DNA of 64,000 bases from Candidatus Micrarchaeia archaeon (GCA_041663445.1 JBAYMR010000001.1:47393-111392), one strand, 5' to 3'. Shown: positions 3,274 to 60,256, counted from the first letter of the stretch. The notes: generated by a model from the sequence alone, not told the origin. Numbers and translations are program-made.

Positions 3274-4083
3274 TCACTTCCGCTTGAAGAGCCAGTACCA
3301 GAGCGCGGCAACGAACACGAGCCGCAGCGCAACGCTCACAAACCCGCGCTGCAGGCCGAACACCTCGATTTGGGGGATGGATATCAGCATGGGGTGGATG
3401 CCGAAGCCGAAAATCCCGAACGTGACCGCGTCCCAAAGCGCGTGCCCGACAGCGCCGGGGGCGATTGCGCCGGACTTGAGCCTTATCAGCCCCCAGACCA
3501 TCCCGTCCAGGAGCACGCCCGCAAGAAACACCGGCATCATGTTGGCGGACACCATGTAGTCAGGGTCTATGAAAAAGAGGGGGATGTGCCACATGCAGTA
3601 GGCAAACGACGTGAAAATCACGACTTCCTTTGCACCGATTTTTTTCCCCTCCATGAAGCCAAAAAGCCAGCCGCGGAAGAAAAGCCCGGTGGTGAAAAAG
3701 TTCAGCACTATGAAGATGACGAACATGCCTGCGAACGAATATGCCTGGTCAACGGACAGTATGGGGTTCAGGTCCTCGCCGGTCAGCACCATCACGGCCA
3801 CCACCCCGGCAAGTATGCAGAGCGGATATGCGACTGCGATTGCGTAGTCCTGCAGGCTGCCGAGGCAGAAGCCCATTTTTTCCTTTCCGAGCCTGGAAAC
3901 GAACAGCCAGAGCGCGGCGGCCAGGAAGAACAGCCCGCCGGTATACCACGACGGGTCGCTGAAGGCGAATGCAAGAAGGCTGCAGACCGCCAATGAGGCC
4001 AATGCCCAGAAAGCCGGGAAGGCGTATTTTGACAGCGGGGATATTGATTGCTTGCCGGATGCCTGCTTGTTGCGCTTAGCCAT
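3274..4083 (-). CDS. CPBP-family (CAAX protease/Abi-like) intramembrane metalloprotease
   Basis: Polytopic membrane protein with the motifs FTSFAYCMWH and GHALWDAVTF, which match the FxxxH and HxxxN/D signatures of CPBP proteases. Confidence 0.7.
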   Translation of the reverse strand: MAKRNKQASGKQSISPLSKYAFPAFWALASLAVCSLLAFAFSDPSWYTGGLFFLAAALWLFVSRLGKEKMGFCLGSLQDYAIAVAYPLCILAGVVAVMVLTGEDLNPILSVDQAYSFAGMFVIFIVLNFFTTGLFFRGWLFGFMEGKKIGAKEVVIFTSFAYCMWHIPLFFIDPDYMVSANMMPVFLAGVLLDGMVWGLIRLKSGAIAPGAVGHALWDAVTFGIFGFGIHPMLISIPQIEVFGLQRGFVSVALRLVFVAALWYWLFKRK

Positions 4084-5506: not shown

Positions 5507-6478
5507 CTATCCCTGCGGGAAATAGCAGAACCTGTATTCCTTCACTATTCGCACCCATGCCTGCGCGCTCATTATCCTGTGGAAGCGCCTCACCACGGAC
5601 TGCGTGATTTCGCGCACCTCGCGCTCGCCGCTCGCGCGCACGTCGTACATCAGCTCGTACTCCGACACTATGCGCATGACGCGGCGCACCTGCGGCATGG
5701 AAAGCAGGAAGGAGGAAACTGCGCGCACGTTCTCATCCGTGGGTGCTGACAGGTTGAGGAGCACGCGGTAGTGGCGGAAGCCCTCCATCTCGCTCCCCAG
5801 GTTTATGGTATAGCCCCTGATTATCTTGCGCTCCTGAAGCGACTTGAGGTGGTAGCGCGCAGTTTCGGGCGGCATGCCAGTTCGCTTCCCAAGGTCAGAA
5901 TAGGAGATGCGCGTGTTGCTGGCAACCGCGGAAAGGATTTCCCTGTCCTTCTGGCTTATCCTTTCCTGGCTGCGCTGCACGCCAAGCGTCACGGGATGCT
6001 TGGGCGAATCGGAGCTGCTGGAAAATGCGCGCGGCACCACGGTGGTCGTGCTCAGATGTACTGCCCAGTGCATGGATTGCACAATGCCCCGTAGGATGCG
6101 GTGCAGCCTCAGGCTTTTCCTGGCAAGGTCCGCGGTCCCTTCGCTTGCAATGCTCAGGGAAAGGTCCCACTCTCCCTCGCACTTCAAAAGCGAGAGGACG
6201 CCAAGCGAGAGAAGCTCGGATGCCACCTGCTTCTCCTTTCTGGTCGACACCGGCTTGAGCTTGAAGTTGAAGATATGGACGCCGTAGCCGACGCGTTCGC
6301 AGTCGATGAGCGCGGCAAACGAGCCGATGCTTCCGTGTGCAAGCAGCGAGGCTATGCGGCTCGAGGCGTTCTGCTTTGACACGCGGGCACTTGCCGCAAT
6401 CCTGGAAATCGGCTGGCGGCTGTCGCAGAGCAGCTGCGCAAGGATTTTGCGGTCTGTGGCGCTAAGTTCCCCTCCCAT
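5507..6478 (-). CDS. Lrp/AsnC-family transcriptional regulator, tandem-duplicated (two HTH-AsnC units)
   Basis: Two repeats of HTH plus RAM-like regions: ATDRKILAQLLCDSRQPISRIAASARVSKQNASSRIASL... and QKDREILSAVASNTRISYSDLGKRTGMPPETARYHLKSLQERKII... Confidence 0.7.
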   Translation of the reverse strand: MGGELSATDRKILAQLLCDSRQPISRIAASARVSKQNASSRIASLLAHGSIGSFAALIDCERVGYGVHIFNFKLKPVSTRKEKQVASELLSLGVLSLLKCEGEWDLSLSIASEGTADLARKSLRLHRILRGIVQSMHWAVHLSTTTVVPRAFSSSSDSPKHPVTLGVQRSQERISQKDREILSAVASNTRISYSDLGKRTGMPPETARYHLKSLQERKIIRGYTINLGSEMEGFRHYRVLLNLSAPTDENVRAVSSFLLSMPQVRRVMRIVSEYELMYDVRASGEREVREITQSVVRRFHRIMSAQAWVRIVKEYRFCYFPQG

Positions 6479-12247: not shown

Positions 12248-13552
12248 CTAGTAGAGCCCCGATATCTGCGAGAAGATGACAATCAGCAGAAGCGCAATCG
12301 GGACGAGCACGCGCGAGGCGAATGCAAAATAGCCATCGTAGCGGGGCGGGAGCCCGATTGCACCCGAGATGCCCTTATGGGGCAGGAGATAGGCGCAGGA
12401 GATTGCCACCGCAAGCGCTGAGAACGGCGCGAGGAAAGACCCGAAAAAGAAATCGAACAGGTCCAGGAAAGGCTTTCCGAACATCGAAAGCGTTAGCGGG
12501 GAATATGAGAGTGCAGAAAGCATTCCCACAAGGAAGATTCCCGCGCCGGCAATCGCGCCCCATTTCTTCCCGAAAGTGACGAACGACACGTTTACGTGCT
12601 CGACCATGGAGATTACCGATGTAAAAGCCGCCGCGAAGAGAAGCCCGAAGAAAAGTGCGCCGACGATTGCACCTAGAATACCTTGCGACAGGAAGAAGAG
12701 CGGGAGCGTCTCGAACGAAAGCGCAAGCCCGGTGCCAGGGGAGGAAAGCGTGGAGGCGAGCATTGCCACTGCGACGAATGCAAGCGCGGATGCTGCGGTG
12801 TCGGCGCCTGCGACCTGGATTGAGGATGAGAATATGTCCTTTCCGCGCTTCAGGTGCATCCCGTATGTGAACATTATGCCGTACCCCACTGACAGGGAGA
12901 AGAGCACCTGCGAGAGCGCATAATACCATGTGCGCGGCTCGAATATCTTCTCAGCCCCTGAAAAAGCGTTTTGCCGGAACGAATCAACCGCGCCGTCGAG
13001 CGTGCACGCGTAAGCCGCAAGGATGACAAGGGAAATGAAAAGCAGGGGGACGAGCTTCCCGGTGATTGGCTCGATGCCCTTGCTGATTCCGCGGAAAACC
13101 GTGAAATACGCTGCAGCGAAAATCAGGATGAAGTACGCGATGGGTGAAAAGTCGCTTTGCATGTGCTGGAACGAGGGCGCTGAGCCGAGAAGGAAATTCC
13201 CGGCAAACCAAAGCGTCCACGCGCACAGGACCATGTAATAGCCGGTTATCACAAGGCTCACGATGACCGGGAAAAAGCCGAGTGCCTCTCGGATTGGCCT
13301 TTTCAGGAACGGGATGTTCTTGGTTTGCCAAACCGACTTTGCAAAGCTTTTTTTCTCCCTGAACCCCTGTCCCGTTTCCATGAGGAAAAGCGGTATGCCT
13401 ATTATCGCAAGGCAGGCAAGATAGGGTATGAAAAACCAGATGCCGCCGTTCTCCGAAGCTATGTAGGGGAAGCGCCAGATGTTGCCAAGCCCGACTGCCG
13501 CCCCGATTGAGGCAAGGACAAATGCAGTCTTCGAAGACCATTGCTCAGCCAT
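12248..13552 (-). CDS. Neurotransmitter:sodium symporter (NSS/SNF) family transporter
   Basis: GLGNIWRFPY signature near the N-terminus and 11-12 TM helices. Start trimmed to MAEQWSSK. Confidence 0.85.
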   Translation of the reverse strand: MAEQWSSKTAFVLASIGAAVGLGNIWRFPYIASENGGIWFFIPYLACLAIIGIPLFLMETGQGFREKKSFAKSVWQTKNIPFLKRPIREALGFFPVIVSLVITGYYMVLCAWTLWFAGNFLLGSAPSFQHMQSDFSPIAYFILIFAAAYFTVFRGISKGIEPITGKLVPLLFISLVILAAYACTLDGAVDSFRQNAFSGAEKIFEPRTWYYALSQVLFSLSVGYGIMFTYGMHLKRGKDIFSSSIQVAGADTAASALAFVAVAMLASTLSSPGTGLALSFETLPLFFLSQGILGAIVGALFFGLLFAAAFTSVISMVEHVNVSFVTFGKKWGAIAGAGIFLVGMLSALSYSPLTLSMFGKPFLDLFDFFFGSFLAPFSALAVAISCAYLLPHKGISGAIGLPPRYDGYFAFASRVLVPIALLLIVIFSQISGLY

Positions 13553-15509: not shown

Positions 15510-16616
15510 CTAAAGCGGCTTTGGTTCGATTACCTTCCCGCCGGATGCCACCACCATGCGGCGCCCATCTTCAAAGATAGCATAGACGTCAGCCCGTATC
15601 GGCGAGATGGGCGCGTAAACTACATCCTGGTGCGTGCTTGCATCCACAACTCCGCTCCACGACCCTTTCGTTCCGAAATGGATGTTTTTCCCGTACGCTA
15701 TGTGTACGCCTGCTTTTTCCTCTTCTAGTATGTTCCCAAGCCTGGCGCTCGGATTCAAGCCAAATCCGAGTTCGGCGACGTTTGCGGCATTCGGGTCCTT
15801 TTCTATCAGAGCCAGGAGCTTCCTCGCAAAAGCAGAGTCGCCCGGCACCCCCACTATCCGGTTTTTCTCTACGAGCAGGAGAACTGTCTTCCCGTCCTCT
15901 GCAGAATAGACGGGCCATACGCCCTCGGTTTGCGAATTTCCAATCGCCGCAAGGGCGCCAGGGTGCACGCCTTCATAGGGCGTGCAGTAAAATTCAGCGC
16001 CTGGCAGGTTTGTAAACCCGTCGCCCGGATTCCTGCTGAATCCGGGGCTCATGTGCCAGTTCGCGTGCCTTGTGTCGACATACAATGAGAAGACCAGTCC
16101 CGGGGGGACATTGAAAGTTATTTCAAACCCAACAGCATCCTTCACCATGTTCATGGCTTTGGAGCCAAGCTCATTCATGGCGTCATGGTCCACAGACATG
16201 GCGCCCTCATTGCTTGAAACCACTGTCGGCATGCTAAGCCCGCGAACCGACCCTGTTTGTTTTGCTATTTCTTTAAGGTCAGCGGTCTGCGAATAGGTTG
16301 TCATTGCGACGACAATGTCCGCAGATTTTATTATGCCAACCACATTGGAGACTGGTTCGCCTCCAAATAGTCCGTCGGAAGGAAAATTGGCATTGTGTTT
16401 GCCGGGTTCCGCATATTTTAGAAGGGGGAGCACCTGAAAGCCAATCCTTTTTGACAGGACGGAAGCGGCTTTCACCCATCTAAGCAAAAGGTCGCGCCTG
16501 TCCTGCCTTTCAGGGTCAAGAGGGCCGTTCGGCTCATCGGTTACAAAGAGCAGCTTTTCGCCTTTCTTCGGCTGGAGGGCGCTGATGATCAATTTTTGGA
16601 TTCTTTCCTGAGACAT
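15510..16616 (-). CDS. M29-family aminopeptidase (AmpS/PepS/aminopeptidase T-like)
   Basis: N-terminal region ...SALQPKKGEKLLFVTDEP... and C-terminal KAGVHIAYGKN, which matches the HIAxG motif of M29 peptidases. The ORF extends to 16838; start trimmed to MSQERIQ. Confidence 0.65.
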   Translation of the reverse strand: MSQERIQKLIISALQPKKGEKLLFVTDEPNGPLDPERQDRRDLLLRWVKAASVLSKRIGFQVLPLLKYAEPGKHNANFPSDGLFGGEPVSNVVGIIKSADIVVAMTTYSQTADLKEIAKQTGSVRGLSMPTVVSSNEGAMSVDHDAMNELGSKAMNMVKDAVGFEITFNVPPGLVFSLYVDTRHANWHMSPGFSRNPGDGFTNLPGAEFYCTPYEGVHPGALAAIGNSQTEGVWPVYSAEDGKTVLLLVEKNRIVGVPGDSAFARKLLALIEKDPNAANVAELGFGLNPSARLGNILEEEKAGVHIAYGKNIHFGTKGSWSGVVDASTHQDVVYAPISPIRADVYAIFEDGRRMVVASGGKVIEPKPL

Positions 16617-16790
16617 GTTCCCCGACAGTTTTTGTCCTGAGAAGTCTTTTGTTGAACCGCTACATCCTTTTTGACTGAAATAAATGTTTTTTCTGAAAAT
16701 CATGTACCCACCCAGTCCATTTTCTGCATAGAAGTGCTTAAAAAGAATGGGTTGTGGAAAGTGCTCTTTCCAGTCAAAAACAGTTTTCTT

Positions 16791-16881
16791 TCTCGATGGC
16801 CCCAAGACAAAACGTAATAGGATACGCCATGCCCCCATCGTGCGCTACCGGGTTATGACGTGCAACACTTTAAATAGGTTT
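16791..16881. repeat. Dispersed repeat family, copy C (contains the TATA box TTTAAATA at 16869-16876)
   Basis: tctcgatggccccaagacaaaacgtaataggatacgccatgcccccatcgtgcgctaccgggttatgacgtgcaacactttaaataggttt. The 3' ~60 bp is nearly identical to 18372-18430. It lies immediately upstream of the AbiEi-like gene. Confidence 0.5.
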
Positions 16882-17014: not shown

Positions 17015-17617
17015 ATGTATTCCGAAATTCCCTATGCCTGCATGCGCGCGTACGCGCTGCTCTTTTCTCGCTTCGGGGCAAGCCGCCCCTTCGCCCAATC
17101 GGAGCTGGATTTCGTTTTCTCCACCCCAATGAAGAAGAAGGTGTTTTCCATCCTGCTGAATGCAGGCTGGATAAGAAAGCGCGACAGGCTGAATTACCTG
17201 TGCAACGAGCCTGGCGAGGTATTCCGGCACCTGCTGGACTTCAAGGTGCCGCAAATGCTGGGGAAGGCGCAAAAGCCCTATGCGTTTTCCGGCCTCTCGG
17301 CAATCGAGGTGTGGAGCGACTACTCCTACACGCAGCGAAGCGTTGAGCGCTCGCCGTATTTCATCAGGGTGCTGCGCAGGGATCTGCCTTACTGGAAGGG
17401 ATTCTTTGCCGCAAAAAGGGTGCCAGTCTACGTTGGAAAGGGAACTTCTATTGGGGAGTTTGCTATCTTACAGCCAGCGGCAAAGCTGGAATCGGTTGAA
17501 AAGGACGGGCTGTCTGTCGAGCCGCTCCAGGATGCGATGGCCGAGGCAAGGGCGAATGAGATGCATTATTATGCGTATGAGTATATGAAAAAGAAATACG
17601 GGCGAATCAATGGATAA
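17015..17617 (+). CDS. Putative AbiEi-like antitoxin/transcriptional regulator (type IV TA), 200 aa
   Basis: Inferred from context only: a ~200-aa protein with an 8-nt overlap to the downstream AbiEii-like nucleotidyltransferase. I cannot confirm a wHTH from sequence alone. Confidence 0.4.
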   Translation: MYSEIPYACMRAYALLFSRFGASRPFAQSELDFVFSTPMKKKVFSILLNAGWIRKRDRLNYLCNEPGEVFRHLLDFKVPQMLGKAQKPYAFSGLSAIEVWSDYSYTQRSVERSPYFIRVLRRDLPYWKGFFAAKRVPVYVGKGTSIGEFAILQPAAKLESVEKDGLSVEPLQDAMAEARANEMHYYAYEYMKKKYGRING

Positions 17618-18299
17618 GTTTGCTGTACGCGAAAAGGAAGTGTTCGGCGCGCTCGAAGCGCTTGTGCACTCAAAGTGCAAGTTTGCCGTGATAGGCGGCT
17701 ATGCAGTGAATGCCTATGCCTTGCCCAGGTTTTCAGTGGACTGCGACCTTGTGGCAAGCAAGGATGGCGCGCGCAAGGTTGCTCACAAGCTGCTTGCATG
17801 CGGTTTCCATCGCGTACCTCTCCCAAAGCACGCGCCATACGTGAACTTCGTGCGCCTTGAAAAAGAAGTTCTGCCAAGTATTGTTGCGGCATTCGACATC
17901 CTTTATGATGAGGTGCACGACAGGCAGTCAGGCACAACTTTTACCGCGGAGTGGATATTTCTCCATTCATCCATAGTTTCTCTTCCGGCAAAGACATTTG
18001 CGGGTCAACTGAAGGTGCGCGTAGTAGACGCAGATACGCTTTTTGTGATGAAGTTCTGCTGCGCAAGGGCAACTGACATCCGGGACATTTTCATGTTCTG
18101 TGACAAGGTGAAAGACTGGGAATGGGCCAGGGCTGAAATTGCGGCGAGAATGGATTTGGCAGCGCAGCACAGGAAGATAATGCAAAAGGTGTCTGGCACG
18201 GAATTCAGGAAGGATTTGGGCGGCGTTTATGGCTATGTGGAGCCTGCGGCATTCGGAAAAAGGCTGAAAATCTTGGAAAGCGCGCTCAAAATTTCCTAG
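17610..18299 (+). CDS. AbiEii/DUF1814-like nucleotidyltransferase (putative TA toxin)
   Basis: NTase-fold signature FAVIGGYAVNAYALPRFSVDCDLV (GG...PRFS.D.D), characteristic of AbiEii/AbiGii-family nucleotidyltransferases. Confidence 0.6.
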   Translation: MDKFAVREKEVFGALEALVHSKCKFAVIGGYAVNAYALPRFSVDCDLVASKDGARKVAHKLLACGFHRVPLPKHAPYVNFVRLEKEVLPSIVAAFDILYDEVHDRQSGTTFTAEWIFLHSSIVSLPAKTFAGQLKVRVVDADTLFVMKFCCARATDIRDIFMFCDKVKDWEWARAEIAARMDLAAQHRKIMQKVSGTEFRKDLGGVYGYVEPAAFGKRLKILESALKIS

Positions 18300-49562: not shown

Positions 49563-49581
49563 ATAGAAAAATGTCCGGCAT

Positions 49582-49654
49582 GGGCTCGTGGTGGAATGGT
49601 TAACACGCTGCTCTCACACAGCAGAGATTCGCGGTTCGATCCCGCGCGAGCCCA
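49582..49654 (+). tRNA. tRNA-Val (anticodon CAC)
   Basis: Canonical cloverleaf folded by hand: acceptor GGGCUCG/CGAGCCC, D-stem GUG/CAC, anticodon arm CUGCU-CUCACAC-AGCAG, T-arm CGCGG-UUCGAUC-CCGCG, discriminator A; no encoded CCA. Confidence 0.85.
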
Positions 49655-49662
49655 TTAGACAA

Positions 49663-49730: not shown

Positions 49731-49866
49731 AAGATTCGCGGTTCGAGCATCGAATGAGAAGCATTCGGTGCGAAGTCGTCATCAGCACGACTACGATCGC
49801 CAACTTCCGCAGAAGTTGGGGAGACAGAAGGGCCGCAACCCTTCTGGATCCCGCGCGAGCCCATTG
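49731..49866 (+). other. Partial copy of tRNA-Val (positions 44-73) split by a 102-nt structured insertion in the T-loop (after nt 58)
   Basis: agattcgcggttcga [102 nt] atcccgcgcgagcccatt matches tRNA-Val 3' region exactly. The insert folds into four hairpins: GCAUCGAAUG/CAUUCGGUGC, GUCGU/ACGAC, CCAACUUC/GAAGUUGG, AGAAGGG/CCCUUCU. Confidence 0.55.
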
Positions 49867-50536: not shown

Positions 50537-50704
50537 GCTCCCATAGTCTAGTGGCTGACTTCGGTGCAATTGTGCACCGGCGCGAGCCGGACAACCCGGT
50601 CAAGGACGGAGCCCTCTCATGGCCCTTTTCGACGTATCGAAAAGCGTTCACGGAAATTTTTCCTGAGAAAGGCTCTAACTCGGGTTCAAATCCCGATGGG
50701 AGCG
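50537..50704 (+). tRNA. tRNA-Glu(CUC)-like gene with two putative intervening sequences (pseudogene not excluded)
   Basis: 5' GCUCCCA-UA-GUCUAGUGGCUGAC (acceptor + D arm) and 3' UCGGG-UUCAAAU-CCCGA-UGGGAGC-G (T arm + acceptor) pair perfectly. An internal anticodon arm GAGCC-CUCUCA at 50609-19 pairs with GGCUC at 50671-75. Intervening sequences: 50561-50608, and 50620-50669 at the canonical 37/38 site. CUCA can pair with the intron 3' UGAG, leaving an AAA bulge (BHB-like). Confidence 0.4.
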
Positions 50705-50835
50705 TTTTATTTTTTCTTCAGAAAAAATGAAACAGGTTGTGAGGCATCACGACTGCGAATTTTCTTTTTTTACTTTTAACACCTCAACGACGTAATACAC
50801 TTTGAACAATTCTTTATATACAGCAGCCGCGATAG

Positions 50836-52617
50836 TTGAGCATGCCTACTCCAGGTATGGTTCAGATTGACCCTGTGCAGAGACAGACGTCTGCCACAGC
50901 AGATGTGTTTGATGCACGGCAGACAGCGCTTCAGGCGAAGCAGGATGTCAACCTTCTTATTGAGAAGTTGAAAAGCGAACTTCAATCATCCAAGCACGAA
51001 AGTCTTCAGATATTAAGCTCATTTCCAATCCCGATAAAAAAAGGACACGAATGGGAAATGAGGGAGACCTATCGTAAGGCAGCCTGCGATGCCAATGACC
51101 TTCTGAGAAAGGAGGGAGCGCCCATTGCCATCTGGCTAGAGGATGTTGGTGACAAGTTCCATATTGTGACTGGAAGATATGAGGAGCGAACGCCCAAAGT
51201 AATGCAAATTGAGGAAAAGATGCCGCAGGTCGTGCAGAGCGAAGAAGGTGGAAAGGCAGTTCCAGCAGTCACGCCCATATTCGACTTGACCGAAACTGAT
51301 AGAAATGAACTTTGTGTCACAAATGAGGTGCTGGCAGGCATGAAGCCCAATCAGTTGACAGATGGGCAATGGAAAGTGCTGAACAAGATTATGGATAAAA
51401 CAGCGGAGCACATATATGGGAAGAATTTCGACAAGCTTTCACAAGGCAGGAAAATCAATGTGCTGCGACACATATTCTCTCCCCACACCGATGAGGGAAA
51501 GGAACTTGGGTTTACATATTCTGGGAGCGCCGAGTTGAAAATAGCTGCGGAAACATTATCTTCTCTGAAGGGAGACTGTGATGACTTCTCGTTCTTGTAC
51601 ATAGCTTGCGCAAACCGCCTGGATGGCGAAGGCAGGCTGCATGTAAAAGACATAAAGCTGGCAGTTGTTGACTATTACGACCCAAAGAACAATGAAATCG
51701 GGGCGCATGCAAATGTCTTTCCCGTCGTCCTCAACAAGGTTGGCGGAAAGAGGGCAAAGATATTCCTTGTCGATTTGACTTTCAACACATCTACAACGCC
51801 GTTAGGACATAAGGAAAATGAGATTGATGCGAAAAACGACAAGTTCAGAGACAAATTCCTTGGACACATGAACGAGAGCAGGGAAGAAAAGAAAATCGAG
51901 GTAATGGAATTGCGCCTCTATGACGGTTTCACGGGGCTGCTTGCCTACTATTACACAAACAATGGGGCGACTCTTGCAAAGGAAGCTAAAGATATTGGCA
52001 AAAACTCCGAGAAGCAGATCGATGCACTCATGAAACTCGATGAATACGACAAGGTAGTGGCGATTTACCAGGACATAGACAATAAATTTGAGGATGCAAA
52101 GAAAGCCCTCAATGGAGCAATCGAGATTGGAAAAGAGAGCGGCTGCAACTATGGGGATGCGCTTGTTAGGATGGGCATCCTTTACTATGGACAGGGCAGC
52201 AATCTGATAAACTGGAGCACGCCACTATCCGCAAGCGGGAAATCGGAGGATGGCACAAAGAAAACAGCGAAAGGCATTGAACTCCACAGCGATTGCTACG
52301 CATATTTCAAAGAAGCGCTCGAACTACCAGACGTCAGTTCATTCGTGTTGAACGAGGGGGCAAAAGTGCTACGCGAGAGCCTGAACTCGGAAGGATATCT
52401 AATCGCAGAACAGATGGTTGTCAAGGCAATCAAGGCAGCACCATTCAAGCCAGAACTCTACGAAACGCTGCTGTCAATCATGAACAAGGAGGGCAAAACC
52501 TCAGAGGCTTTGAAGCTTTTGCAGGAGTATATAAAGGCCCCTGGGCTGCCTCCAGAAGTCAAGAAAATGATTGATGGTTTGATAACCGAGGCAGCGGGAG
52601 TACCCACTGAGCACTAG
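50836..52617 (+). CDS. Transglutaminase-like cysteine-protease-fold domain + C-terminal TPR-like helical repeats (593 aa), in a low-GC island
   Basis: Cys-His-Asp arrangement typical of the transglutaminase-like core: GDCDDFSFLYIACANRL ... GAHANVFPVV ... IFLVDLT. C-terminal amphipathic helical repeats. Local GC ~45% versus ~60% on the contig. Confidence 0.5.
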   Translation: MSMPTPGMVQIDPVQRQTSATADVFDARQTALQAKQDVNLLIEKLKSELQSSKHESLQILSSFPIPIKKGHEWEMRETYRKAACDANDLLRKEGAPIAIWLEDVGDKFHIVTGRYEERTPKVMQIEEKMPQVVQSEEGGKAVPAVTPIFDLTETDRNELCVTNEVLAGMKPNQLTDGQWKVLNKIMDKTAEHIYGKNFDKLSQGRKINVLRHIFSPHTDEGKELGFTYSGSAELKIAAETLSSLKGDCDDFSFLYIACANRLDGEGRLHVKDIKLAVVDYYDPKNNEIGAHANVFPVVLNKVGGKRAKIFLVDLTFNTSTTPLGHKENEIDAKNDKFRDKFLGHMNESREEKKIEVMELRLYDGFTGLLAYYYTNNGATLAKEAKDIGKNSEKQIDALMKLDEYDKVVAIYQDIDNKFEDAKKALNGAIEIGKESGCNYGDALVRMGILYYGQGSNLINWSTPLSASGKSEDGTKKTAKGIELHSDCYAYFKEALELPDVSSFVLNEGAKVLRESLNSEGYLIAEQMVVKAIKAAPFKPELYETLLSIMNKEGKTSEALKLLQEYIKAPGLPPEVKKMIDGLITEAAGVPTEH

Positions 52618-52623
52618 AGGGCG

Positions 52624-53238
52624 CTATCTTGGGACTGGTTCAGTTACTTTCTGGTTTCTCAGATGCTTGAGTTCCTGCCATTCTTCAAGCAATGCCTTCA
52701 CTTCCGCTGGTGTGTGGATTTTGAAGGCGTTCGATGGGGTTGCGCCCTTGTCGCTGAGAAAAGCAACACGCAATTCGTTCTTTGCATTCTCCCAGCGGCG
52801 CTCAAGTTCCACCCTATCTTCCTTGGAATATGAATTGAGGACTCTACCAGACAGACCGAAAGGCGGAGTGTAGTTTTCTGCATCCAGCCAAGCAGCACGG
52901 AAAGCGCCTAGCTCTGGTTTTTTCTCTGAAAATGTCTTGTCACTTAGCGAATTGGAATACGGCATGTAATGTTCAAGCGTCCTTACATCTGGAATTACCA
53001 GTTTAGGGATAGTGTCCATCGTCTTTGTCGTGTCTTTCTTCGCCTGTTCTATTGACTTGAAAGCCCCGGTTTGCATCAACAGCACGGTGTCACCCCCTTT
53101 TTTTGTTCCTTTGTTCTGCGAATATACCTTGGTAAATATGCCCGAAGTAAGTAAAAAAGCACCTGTAAGGAAGATAGCAGCGCCCACTCTGGAGACATGA
53201 CCTGTTTTTTGCCTGAAATGAGCCGTCTTGACGTGCAT
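52624..53238 (-). CDS. Hypothetical secreted/membrane-anchored protein (204 aa), low-GC island
   Basis: N-terminal hydrophobic segment VGAAIFLTGAFLLTSGIF; convergent with the transglutaminase-like gene. Confidence 0.4.
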   Translation of the reverse strand: MHVKTAHFRQKTGHVSRVGAAIFLTGAFLLTSGIFTKVYSQNKGTKKGGDTVLLMQTGAFKSIEQAKKDTTKTMDTIPKLVIPDVRTLEHYMPYSNSLSDKTFSEKKPELGAFRAAWLDAENYTPPFGLSGRVLNSYSKEDRVELERRWENAKNELRVAFLSDKGATPSNAFKIHTPAEVKALLEEWQELKHLRNQKVTEPVPR

Positions 53239-53392
53239 GCATCTATTCTGTCTTCTGGGCTATATAAAGGTAATTTCTCAGAAGAAAATCAGCACATCAC
53301 CCACTGAGAGTTTTTATTTTTTTACCCGATTTCTCACTAAATAAAACTATATTTAAAAAGGCTTCGCAACAGGAAACGATTCAGGTGAAAAG

Positions 53393-53785
53393 ATGGCGAC
53401 GCTTGAAACAAAACCGCTAGAAAAAACCCTGCCGATGGCATTCAAGGTTTCAGGGAACAGGTACCTGGTGATGGCGAAATCCAACGATGACGGGAGGCTG
53501 AGGGTTTCAGCTTTCATAGGGAAGATACTGGACAAGGAACCGCCGCTGAAGGAAGGCGAACGGATATACTGGATTGCCGCCGGGCAGATGGACGACGGAA
53601 GGAAAGACAGCCCGAGAAAAGGGCACATATTCTACAAGGGAGTTGACGACAAAGAGGCTGCCGGCGTATGGAACGCAATTGATTCCGACAGGGCACGAGT
53701 AGACTGGGCATTCATCTCCAGAGTGCTTAAGCCAGGGACTCCGATAACTCCGTTTGTGGAGCTGAGCAAGGCCGGAAAGAACTAA
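53393..53785 (+). CDS. Hypothetical protein (130 aa)
   Basis: ORF only; normal contig GC. Confidence 0.4.
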   Translation: MATLETKPLEKTLPMAFKVSGNRYLVMAKSNDDGRLRVSAFIGKILDKEPPLKEGERIYWIAAGQMDDGRKDSPRKGHIFYKGVDDKEAAGVWNAIDSDRARVDWAFISRVLKPGTPITPFVELSKAGKN

Positions 53786-53821
53786 GGCGTGCGTCGCAGA
53801 TGCCAGAATGAAGGTGCTTAA

Positions 53822-54547
53822 ATGGTCAATGCCCCAAGTATAGTAAGGAAAGGGATGGTGAACGACAAGGAATCGGCAGGGGACGCGGCGCTTGATTCGT
53901 TCCACAAGGTGATGAAAAAGATGCCCCGGCTGCGCGAGGGCAAGGCAGGGGATGGCAGCGCATGGCTGGCAGGGGCCTGCAAGGATAGGGGCGCGGGCTT
54001 TGGCATGGTCGTGGCGGAGGGGCCGCAAATCATCTCGGCAATCAGGCTTGGTGGCGGGAATGCAACCGCATTTTCCAAGCGCGGGATTTCGAAAATCGGG
54101 GAAATCCATGAATGCCGCACCTACTGCGTGGCTACGGTGGAAGGCGTGGAATTCGCCTCGAAGGGGGCGTTCTGGATGTGGTCGGCGTCAAAAGACTACC
54201 ACGACATATGCGGGCACCTCAACGGGCTGCAGGCATATGACGCAACCGGCGGGGTTGACATCGCGATTATTGGCGGCGCGGCTGAACTCCTGAAGGGAAG
54301 CGTGCAGACAAAGCATGGCAATTACAGCTTCAGCTTCTTCGCAAGGAATTTTGCCGAGGGCAAAAAGGCAATCAGGTGCGACTATTCTATGCTGCTTGAG
54401 GGGGAGAACGTCTGGAACGCCGCTCAGGCGCAGCAGGACGGCACGCTGGAAAAAATATTCAACAAGATGCGGGCGGCTGCGAAGAAAATGTTCCCGAGCG
54501 AAATGTGGGGGCAGGTAAAGCTGGAAAACGTGATTGGCGCGCCCTAG
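53822..54547 (+). CDS. Hypothetical protein (241 aa)
   Basis: ORF only; several Cys/His (HECRTYC, HDICGH). Confidence 0.4.
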   Translation: MVNAPSIVRKGMVNDKESAGDAALDSFHKVMKKMPRLREGKAGDGSAWLAGACKDRGAGFGMVVAEGPQIISAIRLGGGNATAFSKRGISKIGEIHECRTYCVATVEGVEFASKGAFWMWSASKDYHDICGHLNGLQAYDATGGVDIAIIGGAAELLKGSVQTKHGNYSFSFFARNFAEGKKAIRCDYSMLLEGENVWNAAQAQQDGTLEKIFNKMRAAAKKMFPSEMWGQVKLENVIGAP

Positions 54548-55644
54548 CGCACGTATTCTTCCGCCGCTTTCACGATGTTCTGGAAGAAGCGCAGGCTGTT
54601 TTTCTCGTAGGAGATTCCCGCAGTGAAGCGCGGGAACTGCGTCCTGTACATGCTGCATTCGGGGTGGGGCATGAGCCCCAGAATCTTGCCCGTCCTGTCG
54701 CAGATGCCCGCGATGTCATAAGGTGAGCCGTTCGGGTTGGCAGGGTAGCCTGGGGAGTCGGACATCTTTTCATCGGTGTAGCGCAGCGCCACCATGCCCT
54801 GCCTCTTGAGCGAGGCAAGAAGCTCGGAGTCGCGCGGAACGAACTGCCCCTCGCCGTGCCTGACAGGGCACTGGATGAATGATACGCCCTCGAAGTATTT
54901 GCACACCGACTTTTGCGGCTTGAGGTAGACCCAGCGGTCCTCGAACCTGCCGCTCTTGTTGAACGTGAGCGTGGACTCCTGGGAAGACGAGCCGGACAGG
55001 TTCGGCAGCGCGCCAAGCTTCACCAGTGTCTGGAACCCGTTGCACACGCCGAGCATTGGCTTGCCGGATGACACGAACTCGTCGAACTGCGCCCGGAACG
55101 TGCTCTTGAGCTTGTTGGAAAGCACGCGCCCGCCAGCGATGTCATCGCCGAACGACCAGCCGCCGGGTATTGCGAATATCTCGTAGTGGGACAGCTTTTC
55201 CCTGCCCGATGAAATGTCCGAGAAGTGCACTATCTTCGCATCGGCCCCTGCAAGGCAGAATGCGTGCGCAAGCTCAGCCTCGGCATTCAGGCCAAAGCCG
55301 GCGAGCACGATGCAGCGCGGCCTGCGCTTTTCCGCTGCGGACGGCAAAGCATGCACGGCTGCAGTGCGCCTTTGTTTCGCAGGGGCACTGGCCGGCTTTT
55401 TCGCAGCGCCCGCCCCGGATGGCTTTTTCGCATTTGCCGCCCTTGCCTTTGCTTTTGCCGCCATCATCTTCACCGTCTTTTTCTGCGCGCGCCGTTTGGC
55501 CGCCATATTTTTCGCCGAGGGCTTGGCTTTTTTATTCGCCGCCCCGCCCGCCATCTTCTTCACTGCCACTTTGGTTTTTTTCTTCGCTGGGGGCTTGGCT
55601 TTTTTCCTTGCAGTTCCCCTGCCCGCTGTTTTCCCTGATGCCAT
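54544..55644 (-). CDS. purQ: Phosphoribosylformylglycinamidine synthase subunit PurQ (glutaminase) with an apparent ~100-aa Lys/Ala-rich N-terminal extension
   Basis: Class-I GATase: CIVLAGFG..., GVCNGFQ catalytic Cys, HPE... C-terminal region. The N-terminal KKAKPPAKKKTK... extension may instead reflect a mis-called start. Confidence 0.8.
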   Translation of the reverse strand: MASGKTAGRGTARKKAKPPAKKKTKVAVKKMAGGAANKKAKPSAKNMAAKRRAQKKTVKMMAAKAKARAANAKKPSGAGAAKKPASAPAKQRRTAAVHALPSAAEKRRPRCIVLAGFGLNAEAELAHAFCLAGADAKIVHFSDISSGREKLSHYEIFAIPGGWSFGDDIAGGRVLSNKLKSTFRAQFDEFVSSGKPMLGVCNGFQTLVKLGALPNLSGSSSQESTLTFNKSGRFEDRWVYLKPQKSVCKYFEGVSFIQCPVRHGEGQFVPRDSELLASLKRQGMVALRYTDEKMSDSPGYPANPNGSPYDIAGICDRTGKILGLMPHPECSMYRTQFPRFTAGISYEKNSLRFFQNIVKAAEEYVR

Positions 55645-58753: not shown

Positions 58754-60256
58754 CTATTCATCTACAAAAAGCAACGCCCGATTGTCATGCTGGCTACAAA
58801 GGAAAGTCGTATGAACATTATATATCGCATACCCATCTTCTTCCATTCGTTTGCCTGCAATCGTGTCCCAGTCAAATTCCCCGAACGCAGCAATGTATTT
58901 TCCAGATGCTTCTAGAAGACCAAGATTGTGACCGAATTTTGTGTCGATAAAAATTTCACCAGATTGAAGCCAGTCGTGGTTAGACTTATTAGTAAATCCT
59001 ATCGCTTTCACATGAGAAAGGGATTTCAACGAGTAGACTAGTTCACCACCCCAACTCTTGCCTAAAACATCGCTATCAATCAACAAAATGAAGTGCCTGT
59101 GCACCCTGTTGATTTTGGATATCCGCTCCCAGCCTTCTTTATCGAATATGTGCACGATTACGGGTGCATCGTCATCACCAGAACCCTGCACAAATGCTGA
59201 ATAAGCCAGCACTTTTCCGTTTATCATGGACGTGTCGATTGAGAGATGGAAAGAGTCCTTGACAGAGACCTGGTTGATGAAAAATACTGGCTTTTCATTT
59301 TCAGCACGCAATGCCCATTCAAGATCCTCCGCTGTTCCAGTAATTTGCATGTATTTTTCGAGGGAGCAATAAAGTTTGTCCATAGTCAAACTAGTGTGGT
59401 AAAAATCTACCTTGTGATTCCAAATTGGTAGCGCCGTGACAATCGTATTGTTTTCAAGAAGTAGCCTTGCGCCTAGAAAGAAGCTTTTGGGGGAGAGATC
59501 GCGTTCATTGGCAGTGTCATAAATAAAGCGCTGTGCGGAATTGCAGCCGTAGATTAATTCACGTATGGTCGTCAACCTATCAAATACCTCGACAGCCAGG
59601 CCAGCATCCATATCTTTCAAGTCAGCCAAGCCTTGAAAAGCAGTCACGGTGGGAACTGTATCGCCCCATAGACTATAAGTTTGAGCAAGGCCAGAAAGCC
59701 TTGGAGCATAGGCGCTGCCCAGCGTCGTAAATACTTTCTCGGCTACAAGCGGTTCCACCATTATTGCAATTCCATCGGGAAATCCAGTGTTGGCACGGAA
59801 ACGCACAGCGTCCGAAGAATAATGGCTCTTGATGACTTCTTTGACAAAATACTCAACAGAATCAAGGCGATTCATAAAGAAAAATGATTTGTATGCGCCA
59901 GTTCCTTTTGCATCACCATGCGCTGATGAACGTACTGCCAGCGCAGGCTCGTCCCCAAACGCACGACATATCAACTCAAAAACTGCAAGTTCGCCGCGGC
60001 TGAATTTCCCTTTGTCGATTAAGGCGCACATTTCAACATAAGTCGCCCCTTTTGCCCAAGCATCAGATGCGCCGCAGCGTTGCAGGAATTCATTGACAAA
60101 AGGTATGGATAATATTTGCCTTACCATAAGCTGGAAGTCGGCGCGGAGCAGATGTTCGTGACCATTGAATAAATTATAGGCTTTGCCACCCATATGCGCA
60201 GAGGTTTTCTCCCCTCCATGCACCACGAACAGCTCTTTTTTGGTTTGTATATTCAT
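58754..60256 (-). CDS. Stand-alone PEP/pyruvate-binding (PPDK_N, ATP-grasp-like) domain protein (500 aa), low-GC island
   Basis: HGGEKTSAHMGGKAYNL and LAVRSSAHGDAKGTGAY match the GGK(G/A)ANL and VAVRSSAxxED...(S)FAG motifs of PEP synthase/PPDK N-domains. No phospho-His (GG.TSHAAI) domain is present. Local GC ~45%. Confidence 0.55.
   Translation of the reverse strand: MNIQTKKELFVVHGGEKTSAHMGGKAYNLFNGHEHLLRADFQLMVRQILSIPFVNEFLQRCGASDAWAKGATYVEMCALIDKGKFSRGELAVFELICRAFGDEPALAVRSSAHGDAKGTGAYKSFFFMNRLDSVEYFVKEVIKSHYSSDAVRFRANTGFPDGIAIMVEPLVAEKVFTTLGSAYAPRLSGLAQTYSLWGDTVPTVTAFQGLADLKDMDAGLAVEVFDRLTTIRELIYGCNSAQRFIYDTANERDLSPKSFFLGARLLLENNTIVTALPIWNHKVDFYHTSLTMDKLYCSLEKYMQITGTAEDLEWALRAENEKPVFFINQVSVKDSFHLSIDTSMINGKVLAYSAFVQGSGDDDAPVIVHIFDKEGWERISKINRVHRHFILLIDSDVLGKSWGGELVYSLKSLSHVKAIGFTNKSNHDWLQSGEIFIDTKFGHNLGLLEASGKYIAAFGEFDWDTIAGKRMEEDGYAIYNVHTTFLCSQHDNRALLFVDE

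Follow-up and report, generated by a model that had tools for sequence, protein, structure and literature searches.

LapG is a bacterial, periplasmic, calcium-dependent cysteine proteinase of the transglutaminase fold that bears a signal peptide and is under the control of a dedicated membrane receptor, LapD. Vasohibin, a eukaryotic tubulin carboxypeptidase, carries a transglutaminase-like core after a helical lobe and likewise depends on a small partner, SVBP, which is a soluble helix. VirB1-type hydrolases (PrgK, CwlT and TraG, of the CHAP/NlpC-P60 kind) are papain-like cysteine enzymes found in secretion clusters beside VirB6 and VirB4; they reach the outside by export or through a membrane anchor, and their substrate is peptidoglycan, which archaea are not known to possess. 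Papain-like (CHAP/NlpC-P60) hydrolases and bitopic VirB8-like proteins are used by monoderm conjugation systems (PMC12102498), and integrative-conjugative and cryptic integrated element classes have been described in Thaumarchaeota (Krupovic et al. 2019, PMC6563490).

We analysed a 64-kb stretch of DNA from a Candidatus Micrarchaeia (DPANN) MAG, hereafter the window, in which a tRNA-Glu gene is followed by genes for a 593-aa cysteine enzyme and a 204-aa membrane protein. The host of this copy is a tiny symbiotic archaeon. The enzyme has Cys, His and Asp in the same order as the PF01841 Transglut_core superfamily (clan Peptidase_CA); unlike Transglut_core, it has a unique N-terminal domain, a helical lobe ahead of the core and a paired membrane partner, and it is sub-threshold in Pfam. 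LapG is among its top structural matches (4u65_E, E = 5e-4) and the LapG/LapD pair follows a similar logic; however, the enzyme is predicted to be cytoplasmic and has no signal peptide, and its partner is not LapD-like, as HAMP, GGDEF and EAL are not among the Pfam matches of the 204-aa protein. Vasohibins gave the highest TM-scores of the search (0.42-0.46, with ~178 aligned columns at ~4 Å in several entries) and share the order of helical lobe and core, yet their sequence identity to the enzyme is 8-11%, they have no TPR, and SVBP is not a membrane protein; the resemblance is one of fold, not of family membership. Unlike VirB1-type hydrolases, the enzyme lacks an export signal and also occurs within elements whose visible part has no secretion genes. 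The donor contexts described below match the Thaumarchaeota classes (PMC6563490) in their tRNA-adjacent tyrosine integrase, replication modules (primase-helicase, MCM-N/OB) and VirB4, VirB6 and pilin genes, whereas the window holds a 2.5-kb fragment with neither integrase nor att sites. Among the marks of a tRNA-integrated island, atypical composition and absence from relatives were found here; an integrase and a repeat of the tRNA 3' end were not. A literature search found no account of such integrated elements, or of the cassette, in Micrarchaeota.

Extent and origin of the imported cassette

The initial annotation of 50750-54547 had drawn a low-GC island (50.75-53.4 kb) with two genes, followed by two further genes of normal GC; we recovered all four ORFs at the positions claimed. 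The features of the region are as follows.

50537-50704, plus strand: tRNA-Glu(CUC) gene with two introns, recognised by in-silico splicing; forms the left-hand limit of the variable site
50760-50773, plus strand: left-hand member of a 14-nt direct repeat, TTTTCTTTTTTTAC, situated ~30 bp beyond the imported block
50802-53280, no strand assigned: imported two-gene cassette, 91.3% nucleotide identity to L031, L032 and L034
50842-52617, plus strand: gene for the enzyme, a 591/593-aa predicted cytoplasmic protein (N-terminal domain, then transglutaminase-fold core, then TPR)
52624-53238, minus strand: gene for the 204-aa predicted single-pass membrane partner (ORF and hydrophobic-helix prediction)
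53131-53187, minus strand: predicted transmembrane helix of the partner, residues 18-36
53261-53268, minus strand: TATA box of the partner gene, near-identical to the TATA-box promoter of the enzyme gene
53312-53325, plus strand: right-hand member of the 14-nt direct repeat, TTTTATTTTTTTAC, from a repeat search of the window
53393-53785, plus strand: 130-aa orphan ORF, outside the cassette and absent from relatives at the site
53822-54547, plus strand: 241-aa orphan ORF, outside the cassette, with a 4-bp overlap with the PurQ stop codon

The claimed drop in GC 3' of the tRNA-Glu gene was reproduced on recomputation (0.42-0.50 over 50.6-53.4 kb): composition is not uniform, with GC of 0.415-0.497 across 50600-53599 in 400-bp windows and 0.55-0.65 in the flanks on both sides. 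GC3 is 0.54 in the 593-aa gene and 0.49 in the 204-aa gene versus 0.75-0.83 in typical genes of the window, and reaches 0.63 and 0.73 in the 130-aa and 241-aa ORFs, respectively. Neither downstream ORF has a match in Pfam, PHROG, NCBIfam or PADLOC; the 130-aa ORF forms a singleton cluster and is absent from all loci examined, and the 241-aa ORF finds itself as its only match in 5.8 billion clusters. The region is a composite. Its 50.8-53.3 kb portion stands as an import, to which the cassette is confined, but the two downstream ORFs, more host-like in composition, appear to be lineage-specific orphans unrelated to it.

ARAGORN and Rfam scans called no tRNA at 50.5-50.7 kb, where the unspliced sequence still shows tRNA ends, and excision of a D-loop insert (~45 nt) and of a 51-nt insert at position 37/38 yielded a tRNA-Glu(CUC) accepted by ARAGORN. 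The acceptor, anticodon and T stems are retained in the minimum-energy fold of the gene (z = -4.9), its exons are invariant across nine relatives with paired changes in intron 1, and intron 2 is missing from L004 in an exact match to the prediction of the splice model. The gene first described as tRNA-Glu-like is a genuine tRNA-Glu(CUC) with two introns, in agreement with that identification. PurL/PurQ and AlaRS share a contig in five relatives, 0/5 of which carry any of the four genes there. In L004, L006, L009 and L015, which have PurL/PurQ, tRNA-Glu, tRNA-Val and AlaRS on one contig, none of the four genes is present, and spacing and intervening content differ, as does the strand of tRNA-Val in L006. 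The gap between PurQ and tRNA-Glu measures 60 bp in L015, 775 bp in L004, ~890 bp in L006 and ~3.5 kb in L009, where it is filled by other genes; it appears to be a naturally variable site.

By blastn, 50802-53280 aligned over 2483 bp at 91.3% identity to L031, L032 and L034, which come from other metagenomes and carry the pair inside a low-GC element that begins at a tRNA-Asp and an integrase and further encodes MCM-N/OB, wHTH and primase-like genes. This element is low in GC relative to its own host, as the cassette is in the window. The aligned block contains exactly the enzyme and partner genes plus both TATA boxes, and homology to L031 and homology to L018 both end ~10 bp past the TATA box of each gene. 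Because no relative has the genes at this position and a 2.48-kb stretch matches, at 91% DNA identity, part of an integrated element elsewhere, the horizontal acquisition originally suspected is borne out: comparison of the DNA demonstrates transfer of the cassette into this genome, and the cassette appears to have been copied from integrated plasmid-like and conjugation-like elements of related archaea. The same two observations contradict the reading in which the genes are native and owe their low GC to amino-acid or expression bias rather than to transfer; although a region with no integrase and no clear att sites would suit it, GC3 of 0.49-0.54 against ~0.8 in typical genes and the integrase-bearing, low-GC nature of the matching element leave it with hardly any credibility.

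An integrase gene had been reported as absent, and indeed five integrases of related elements (L022 and L024 among them) have no homologue in the window, nor did Pfam scans of the island ORFs find one. The tRNA-derived partial repeats noted nearby do exist, 49625-49656 recurring as 49732-49746 plus 49847-49865, but they derive from tRNA-Val, not tRNA-Glu, lie ~1 kb from the island rather than flanking it and are no att site of it; no tRNA-Glu-derived repeat or second copy of the tRNA-Glu 3' end was found in the 64-kb window. The 14-nt repeat that flanks the cassette has two copies in total in the window versus 0.01 expected and may represent a target-site or att-like duplication, for which it is weak evidence because it is T-rich and of low complexity. 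Further element-derived fragments lie at 15.5-16.8 kb.

Comparison of the window copy with that of L031 gave dN/dS values of 0.16 (enzyme) and 0.23 (partner), which show both genes to be under purifying selection. These ratios weigh against the proposal of a functionless leftover, remaining from an integrated element that decayed and idle in the genome, as do the full length of both genes, their intact promoters and catalytic residues, and breakpoints that fall neatly outside both promoters instead of at random. A window with no integrase, replication or secretion genes, the other element fragments it holds and a composition still undrifted toward the host are what such a leftover has in its favor, and we consider it very improbable.

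The enzyme and its membrane partner

The enzyme ORF opens at TTG 50836, and the probable start codon, ATG 50842, follows a TATA box (50813-50820) by 22 bp; the NCBI annotation gives 591 aa. Its parts are listed here.

50842-51180, plus strand: N-terminal conserved domain, ~residues 1-115, made up of a long helix and a small alpha/beta unit
51283-51945, plus strand: transglutaminase/papain-fold catalytic domain, modelled at ~residues 150-370 (predicted structure, Foldseek, conservation)
51577-51579, 51706-51708 and 51772-51774, plus strand: predicted catalytic codons of Cys248, His291 and Asp313, respectively (codons checked)
51928-52605, plus strand: C-terminal TPR-like alpha-solenoid, ~residues 365-590 (profile, PDB-sequence and structure matches)

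The N-terminal domain, which has no sequence match in the PDB, is highly conserved within the family and also leads the more distant Cys-His-Asp/TPR proteins P0023, P0033 and P0034. The motifs GDCDDF, GAHANV and FLVDLT, which had been read as those of a transglutaminase-like papain-fold core, are all present with Cys248, His291 and Asp313; all 17 family members share Cys248 and His291, and at least 90% of them keep Asp313, one apparently having Glu there. In the predicted structure of the catalytic domain (pLDDT 90.7), the Cys begins helix 99-115, the His lies in strand 138-150 and the Asp ends strand 158-164 (domain numbering), which places His and Asp on successive strands of an antiparallel sheet and Cys at the N-terminus of a helix. 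The best PDB matches by Foldseek were 3isr, LapG, vasohibins, PeiP/PeiW and TglA (E 8e-5 to 2e-2), led by 3isr, a putative cysteine protease of Cytophaga hutchinsonii (E = 7.7e-5), with modest TM-scores of 0.3-0.46. Conservation, model and these matches to transglutaminase-like cysteine proteases together establish the fold class and the conserved triad, and the model supports assignment of the enzyme to the transglutaminase-like/papain-fold cysteine peptidase superfamily fold.

Profile searches were less generous than structure to this part of the initial annotation. The window enzyme has no match to PF01841 Transglut_core (gathering threshold 23 bits) at E <= 1 and lies under every Pfam transglutaminase threshold, and BTLCP is not among the Pfam matches of the enzyme or its relatives; the fold is supported structurally. 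Weak PF01841 matches occur in 8/17 family members (best E = 0.015), and the family profile reaches P0086, a protein above the Pfam PF01841 cut-off; a profile comparison against a true Transglut_core member gave no significant result. The proposed C-terminal TPR-like repeats were recovered by both the full-length model and sequence searches: residues 365-590 are modelled as all-helical (pLDDT ~85-93) and the full-length model matches TPR structures by Foldseek, while Pfam, NCBIfam and PDB sequences each gave weak matches to TPR/PPR, the Pfam repeats being sub-threshold in the window protein and stronger in relatives. No signal peptide or hydrophobic segment was found at the enzyme N-terminus. 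The family has few members (roughly 16-20 representatives in a set of 1.84 billion), and its domain order is constant, not polymorphic.

The convergent 204-aa protein has the N-terminal anchor ascribed to it, a predicted hydrophobic helix at residues 18-36. Because this helix ranks among the best-conserved segments of the protein, it reads as a functional membrane anchor, in a protein that the initial annotation had called secreted. The partner has no Pfam or PDB relative, VirB8 and PrgL included.

Genomic contexts of the pair

Loci fetched via either gene contain one copy of each family, in convergent orientation, wherever the contig is long enough, and at the level of gene content this demonstrates strict pairing. 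We found the pair in 11 distinct contexts, throughout on metagenomic contigs, some of them short; integrase, primase-helicase or type IV secretion-like genes (TrbC, T4SS pilin, TrbL_3 and PrgI-VirB4 for the last) lie within 10 kb in 8/11. Beyond what had been seen from the window itself, the pair is a recurrent cassette of Micrarchaeia integrated elements.

Co-location with VirB4, VirB6 and pilin genes is seen in 5/11 contexts and raises the possibility, in our view an unlikely one, that the pair works as an accessory to an archaeal type IV secretion/conjugation-like apparatus of which the window copy is a stranded remnant. The enzyme would then be an envelope-remodelling hydrolase (VirB1, PrgK, CwlT-like) or a component maturase and the partner a VirB8-like bitopic scaffold. 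Both kinds of protein, papain-like hydrolases and bitopic VirB8-like ones, do occur in monoderm conjugation systems (PMC12102498). On one side of the pair in L022/L023 and L025 is a VirB6-like gene, identified by Pfam TrbL_3 in L022 and by homology to the L022 gene in L025; on the other is a VirB4-type ATPase gene, which is a PrgI-VirB4 fusion in L025 and, in L022, an unannotated gene sharing sequence with that fusion. In the L024, L026 and P0166 contigs it adjoins MTase, TrbC-like and T4SS-pilin genes. L022 further has a 47-nt repeat (91% identical), with one copy where the secretion operon has its promoter and the other in the divergent region that precedes the enzyme gene. Nevertheless, the contexts without such co-location include the window, L018, L019, L021, L029 and L031; the closest copies to the window, L031-L034 and L018, have replication genes and no secretion genes in 12-20 kb of view, and L021, whose context looks chromosomal, has no type IV secretion genes, as in the window. 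Lacking a signal peptide and any membrane segment, the enzyme cannot take the usual route to the envelope, and the partner gives no VirB8, PrgL or other Pfam/PDB signal.

Other neighbors of the pair (ParE, AIPR and restriction-modification genes at some loci) recall the effector/immunity module suggested initially, here widened to a conflict module of toxin/effector plus immunity, superinfection exclusion or abortive defence carried as mobile-element cargo. The cassette moves between unrelated elements with its own promoters, the enzyme diverges faster than the partner (31-47% versus 51-68% identity to the window copies), and the weak Foldseek neighbors of the catalytic domain include the bacterial effector cysteine enzymes Cif, SseI, SpvD and the PMT C3 domain. 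Yet PADLOC defence models match none of the four proteins, polymorphic-toxin features were not seen in an enzyme of constant domain order and conserved triad with no secretion signal or known trafficking domain, the membrane partner is unlike typical small cytoplasmic immunity proteins, and both genes show ordinary purifying selection. The effector/immunity claim is not sustained, and a conflict role of any of these kinds strikes us as distinctly unlikely.

A working model and its meaning

The explanation that we favor, and hold to be somewhat probable, is a self-contained mobile-element cassette of enzyme plus membrane partner that landed alone in the tRNA-Glu/purQ gap. The two genes (50.8-53.3 kb) would circulate among integrated mobile elements of Micrarchaeia, and this copy would have inserted directly downstream of tRNA-Glu with no remainder of any element. 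The enzyme is predicted to be active through Cys248-His291-Asp313, its TPR solenoid probably holds a protein or peptide ligand, and the 204-aa membrane protein, judged by its co-occurrence, would be its obligate partner. We infer a role for the enzyme at the membrane, where it would cleave or modify a protein, with the partner as tether, regulator or substrate; LapG held by LapD, or vasohibin with the small partner SVBP, would be the nearest analogies for such a pair. More speculatively, the pair may serve its carrier elements, for instance through envelope or cell-contact roles linked to their type IV secretion-like apparatus, or alternatively may exclude competing elements. As the window has no type IV secretion genes or integrase and L021 looks chromosomal, a mobile-element role cannot work identically here; the cassette may, speculatively, persist in this genome because the function that it has for elements is still conferred.

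A more specific proposal, which we regard as quite improbable, is that the cassette combines a dedicated substrate or processing enzyme with a membrane docking protein for the type IV secretion-like apparatus borne by Micrarchaeia integrated elements. Its further suggestion, that the TPR-guided enzyme is recruited to the membrane and acts on, or is delivered through, a DPANN-DPANN or symbiont-host channel, is equally doubtful. If true, this reading would give a first molecular handle on material exchange by ultrasmall archaea.

Composition and tRNA genes of the low-GC site

GC content falls to 0.415-0.497 over positions 50600-53599 of the window against 0.55-0.65 on both flanks (400-bp windows), which bears out the drop at 50.75-53.4 kb described in the initial annotation, and the four ORFs described there lie at the coordinates claimed for them. 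GC3 is 0.54 for the gene of the 593-aa protein and 0.49 for that of the 204-aa protein, against 0.75-0.83 for typical window genes; the two downstream ORFs, at 0.63 (130 aa) and 0.73 (241 aa), are nearer to host composition. The 593-aa protein is identical to hypothetical protein WCY41_00525 of a Candidatus Micrarchaeia MAG, and the alanyl-tRNA synthetase (AlaRS) beside the site has its nearest relatives, at 72-89% identity, in Micrarchaeota/Micrarchaeia MAGs.

Features of the site, in window coordinates
50537-50704: tRNA-Glu(CUC) gene with two introns (~45 nt in the D-loop; 51 nt at 37/38), from splicing in silico, fold and relatives
50760-50773 and 53312-53325: 14-nt T-rich direct repeat, the sole two copies in the 64-kb window
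50842-52617, plus strand: 591/593-aa enzyme
52624-53238, minus strand: 204-aa membrane partner
53393-53785, plus strand: 130-aa ORF
53822-54547, plus strand: 241-aa ORF

Neither ARAGORN nor Rfam reported a tRNA at 50.5-50.7 kb in the unspliced sequence, where a tRNA 5' end, GCTCCCATAGTCTAGTGG, and a tRNA 3' end, GGGTTCAAATCCCGATGGGAGCG, were found ~170 nt apart. After in silico removal of a ~45-nt D-loop insert and a 51-nt insert following position 37, ARAGORN called tRNA-Glu(CUC); the fold of the unspliced RNA keeps the acceptor, anticodon and T stems (z = -4.9), and the exons are unchanged in nine relatives. We therefore conclude that the label "tRNA-Glu-like" was correct. The D-loop insert is kept in the nine relatives, its hairpin showing paired changes, and the second insert ranges among them from 0 nt (in L004, a related purine-gene locus) to well over 100 nt. 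The tRNA-Trp gene of the window is likewise intron-bearing (97 nt). As a practical lesson, a two-intron tRNA gene slipped past both standard tRNA finders.

A search for an att site derived from tRNA-Glu found none. The tRNA-derived repeats that had been placed nearby do exist, in that the 3' 33 nt of tRNA-Val (49581-49655) are duplicated at 49732-49865, 75 bp downstream of the gene, but they do not flank the island, and the duplication was rejected as an island border on account of its location. A 100-nt insert with a very stable fold (-62.4 kcal/mol, z = -6.0) interrupts the duplicate at the T-loop position, and the duplicate is missing in every relative compared; possible readings are the remnant of an old att site, half of a pseudo-tRNA and a small structured RNA.

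Elsewhere in the window, a gene for a 500-aa protein containing a PPDK_N (ATP-grasp-like) domain (58754-60256, minus strand; GC 0.45, GC3 0.45) sits immediately after purL, between it and tRNA-Pro, and is likely another acquired gene. A second patch of atypical composition holds genes at 15510-16838 (minus strand), 17015-17617 (plus strand) and 17610-18299 (plus strand). The first encodes a 442-aa protein with a weak M29-peptidase-like signal, 83% identical to a gene adjoining the integrase of the secretion-bearing element L022, and the gene pair that comes after it has an AbiEii-like second member. PurQ (54544-55644, minus strand) carries a ~100-residue Lys/Ala-rich N-terminal extension, which is unusual for PurQ and is found likewise in the related locus L009 (4684-6051).

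Transfer of a 2.5-kb two-gene cassette

Four related loci (L004, L006, L009 and L015) carry PurL and/or PurQ, tRNA-Glu, tRNA-Val and AlaRS on a single contig, with differing spacing and intervening content and, in L006, a different strand for tRNA-Val. Between the end of purQ and tRNA-Glu lie 60 bp in L015, 775 bp in L004, ~890 bp in L006, ~3.5 kb in L009 and, in the window itself, 3.8 kb; the L009 gap encodes an Lrp-like regulator and an unrelated 535-aa protein, and homologues of the four window proteins were found at none of the four loci. The site 3' of tRNA-Glu is thus variable by nature, and the four genes found there are all specific to the source lineage.

A second version of both proteins of the pair was present in the 90%-identity clusters, on metagenomic contigs L031-L034, which match window positions 50802-53280 at 91.3% nucleotide identity over 2483 bp; beyond this block they match the window only briefly, at unrelated genes near 33.2 kb and 4.4 kb. 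The L031 copy of the pair is embedded in DNA of low GC (0.39-0.52, where the host DNA on its flanks has 0.55-0.58); this stretch starts with a tRNA-Asp and a tyrosine integrase and also encodes an MCM-N/OB protein, a winged-helix regulator, zinc-ribbon proteins, a primase-like protein and a 748-aa protein with a second weak transglutaminase-like signal. In L018, another pair-bearing locus, the local gene order is the same, and a PriCT_1/AAA_25 primase-helicase is present in addition. The similarity of the window to L031 and L018 ends ~10 bp past a conserved TTTATATA box on both sides, and this box stands 22 bp upstream of the start codon of both genes; what the three contexts have in common is exactly two genes and their promoters. 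The horizontal acquisition proposed in the initial annotation accordingly holds for 50.8-53.3 kb, and a reading of these genes as native with odd composition is excluded by their absence from the site in relatives and by the identity to a segment of the low-GC element in L031. We conclude that the 2.5-kb cassette was transferred.

The copies of the 14-nt T-rich repeat lie ~30 bp outside either end of the 91%-identity block and may mark the insertion, as its scar; we place little weight on them because the sequence is of low complexity. If this flanking repeat is real, the 130-aa and 241-aa ORFs were at the site before the cassette arrived. Neither ORF is present in any related locus compared; the 241-aa ORF has itself as its sole database match, the 130-aa ORF forms a singleton cluster, and neither proved to be related, as a divergent version, to the genes located after the pair in L018. 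The supposed single "tRNA-adjacent island" is two layers of differing origin, a second practical lesson. Comparison of the window copies with those of L031 gives dN/dS values of 0.16 (enzyme) and 0.23 (partner), indicating that both genes are under purifying selection; these low values, together with intact genes and promoters, argue against the cassette being a dead remnant.

The enzyme and its membrane partner

Seventeen members of the enzyme family have a common layout of a strongly conserved ~115-residue N-terminal segment, a variable linker, a triad core and helical repeats. Trp179, Phe198, Ala237, Gly246, Cys248, Asp250, Pro283, His291, Asn293 and Asn346 are invariant and Asp313 nearly so, and all three motifs quoted earlier for this protein (GDCDDF, GAHANV and FLVDLT) were found. 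Three more distant relatives (P0023, P0033 and P0034) join the same N-terminal domain to other Cys-His-Asp cores and TPRs. The full-length model was moderate (pLDDT 73) and its Foldseek matches were all TPR proteins; because these swamped the search, the core was re-modelled alone from the 17 sequences (pLDDT 90.7, pTM 0.88). The resulting model places the Cys at a helix start and the His and Asp on successive strands. The PDB structures that match it best all belong to the transglutaminase/papain-like fold group, led by the putative cysteine protease 3isr (E = 7.7e-5) and followed by LapG (5.2e-4) and by vasohibins 1 and 2 (from 4e-3). Weaker matches comprise PeiP/PeiW, TglA, the Pasteurella toxin thiol-protease-like domain, Cif, SseI, SpvD and arylamine N-acetyltransferase, and the BFVD viral library gave weak matches alone, PeiP of phage psiM2 among them. 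The model thus upholds the predicted transglutaminase-like papain-fold core, with its conserved triad, joined to a TPR domain.

In the sequence-profile comparison, none of the Pfam transglutaminase models matched the window enzyme. PF01841 was touched weakly by 8 of the 17 relatives, and the family profile reaches P0086, a protein that passes Pfam's cut-off for PF01841; an hhalign comparison with a true Transglut_core protein aligned the Gly-x-Cys helix alone and was not significant. For the enzyme, searches of Pfam, PHROGs, NCBIfam and PADLOC returned weak TPR/PPR signals alone, queries of PDB sequences with either the protein or its family profile returned TPR/PPR designs alone, and a PDB sequence search with the N-terminal 150 residues returned nothing. 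The structural matches and the weak or below-threshold PF01841 scores therefore place the enzyme in a divergent branch of the superfamily, not in PF01841 as curated. The enzyme has no hydrophobic segment at its N-terminus and so should be cytoplasmic.

The N-terminal 55 residues of the 204-aa partner are among its most conserved and comprise a basic tail (M..K..HFRQ..GH..R), a 19-residue hydrophobic helix and then KKGGDTVLLMQT, after which come a Thr/Lys-rich linker and a ~110-residue domain with invariant Trp117, Pro126, Phe127, Trp149, Gly165, Glu179 and Trp187. Charges are alike on both sides of the helix and give no topology call. Profile searches of Pfam and the PDB found no match for this protein, and neither it nor the 130-aa and 241-aa proteins matched Pfam, PHROGs, NCBIfam or PADLOC.

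Contexts and proposed function of the pair

Among 5.8 billion clusters the 593-aa protein has 4 homologue clusters and the 204-aa protein 18 (E <= 0.001), and an exhaustive profile search gave about 16-20 representatives of the enzyme family among 1.84 billion entries. Every locus fetched via either protein carried one copy of each gene, convergently arranged with stop codons a few bases apart, where the contig was long enough; the two genes are strictly paired. Counting the window, the pair occurs in 11 distinct contexts, five of which have type IV secretion-like genes nearby. A tblastn search of plasmid and phage collections with the enzyme gave no match.

Contexts of the pair, by metagenomic locus
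L022/L023: tRNA-Pro, integrase, AIPR, N6/N4 methyltransferase, TrbC, T4SS pilin, TrbL_3, ankyrin protein, the pair, and a gene matching the L025 PrgI-VirB4 by sequence
L024: tRNA-Leu, integrase, methyltransferase, TrbC-like, pilin, VirB6-like, the pair
L025: methyltransferase, TrbC, VirB6-like, the pair, PrgI (VirB3)-VirB4/TraC fusion ATPase
L026-L028 and the P0166 contigs: methyltransferase/TrbC-like/pilin operon adjoining the pair; integrase beyond the operon in L026 and L027
P0170 context (L029 and a longer sister contig): integrase
L018 and L031-L034: replication genes
L019/L020: ParE, true Transglut_core protein, MBL-fold genes
L021 and the window: appear chromosomal

Integrated elements of several kinds in Micrarchaeia repeatedly carry the pair, as a passenger or as a component, and those with secretion genes are not its only carriers. 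L022 has a 47-nt repeat (91%), one copy of which falls in the secretion operon's promoter region and the other in the divergent region 5' of the enzyme gene (5984-6030 and 12453-12499); its copies contain the palindrome GTGCAATTGCGCAC, of which an extra copy lies at 3338-3351, and the repeat is likely an operator. The same 14-mer, differing at the N position alone, makes up the tRNA-Glu D-loop intron hairpin at window positions 50564-50577 and in relatives; as a link to the three promoter-region copies of L022, this intron palindrome, GTGCAATTGNGCAC, was set aside as probably a coincidence. Pair-bearing elements often encode a second, large protein of 708-748 aa with a transglutaminase-like signal (L018 5148-7349, minus strand; L031 12952-15198, plus strand; L019 1043-3169, plus strand). 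The signal is strong in L019; in L018 and L031 it is weak and accompanies a Cys-rich repeat. A second copy of the enzyme N-terminal domain in L020 (2949-3071), 71% identical to residues 3-43, begins ~400 bp past the partner gene and is cut off by the end of the contig, which suggests that this genome holds cassettes in tandem. An HMM search ruled out the TPR proteins encoded nearby in L021, L024 and L029 as enzyme paralogues.

We propose that the enzyme is catalytically active, as a thiol peptidase, isopeptidase or amidase, that its TPR domain would hold a protein or peptide ligand, and that the membrane partner may tether the enzyme, regulate it or be cut by it; the conserved, putatively cytoplasmic tail of the partner would be a natural candidate for the TPR ligand. 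The benefit to carrier elements might, speculatively, lie in envelope or contact functions tied to the secretion-like apparatus, or in exclusion of rivals. The idea that the pair is a structural or accessory part of the secretion apparatus itself is weakened by element types with no secretion genes in view and by the lack of an export signal in the enzyme, and the solo copies in the window and L021 argue that the pair can also work alone. For a toxin-immunity or defence role, and so for the effector/immunity module of the initial annotation, no positive evidence was found, PADLOC giving no match for the four proteins. The observations of that annotation (low GC and ORFs) stand, and its interpretation is supported in part.

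Dependence on other cells is a feature of DPANN archaea, Micrarchaeia included, whose mobile elements and contact machinery are little known. A literature search found no description of the cassette or of the set of conjugation-like integrated elements in Micrarchaeia to which these contexts point, and nothing on transglutaminase-like proteins in archaeal conjugative elements or on type IV secretion in Micrarchaeota. Low-GC islets adjacent to tRNA genes and transglutaminase-like/TPR proteins are both ordinary categories; new are an enzyme family that falls below every curated model, with about 20 representatives worldwide, an obligate membrane partner without relatives, and a promoter-to-promoter cassette common to integrase-bearing, replicative and type IV secretion-like Micrarchaeia elements. 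Micrarchaeia thus hold an unannotated, strictly paired cassette of an enzyme and a membrane protein that moves as a unit among such elements and can persist alone in a chromosome, and the transglutaminase-fold cysteine peptidases gain a divergent branch with a new N-terminal domain.
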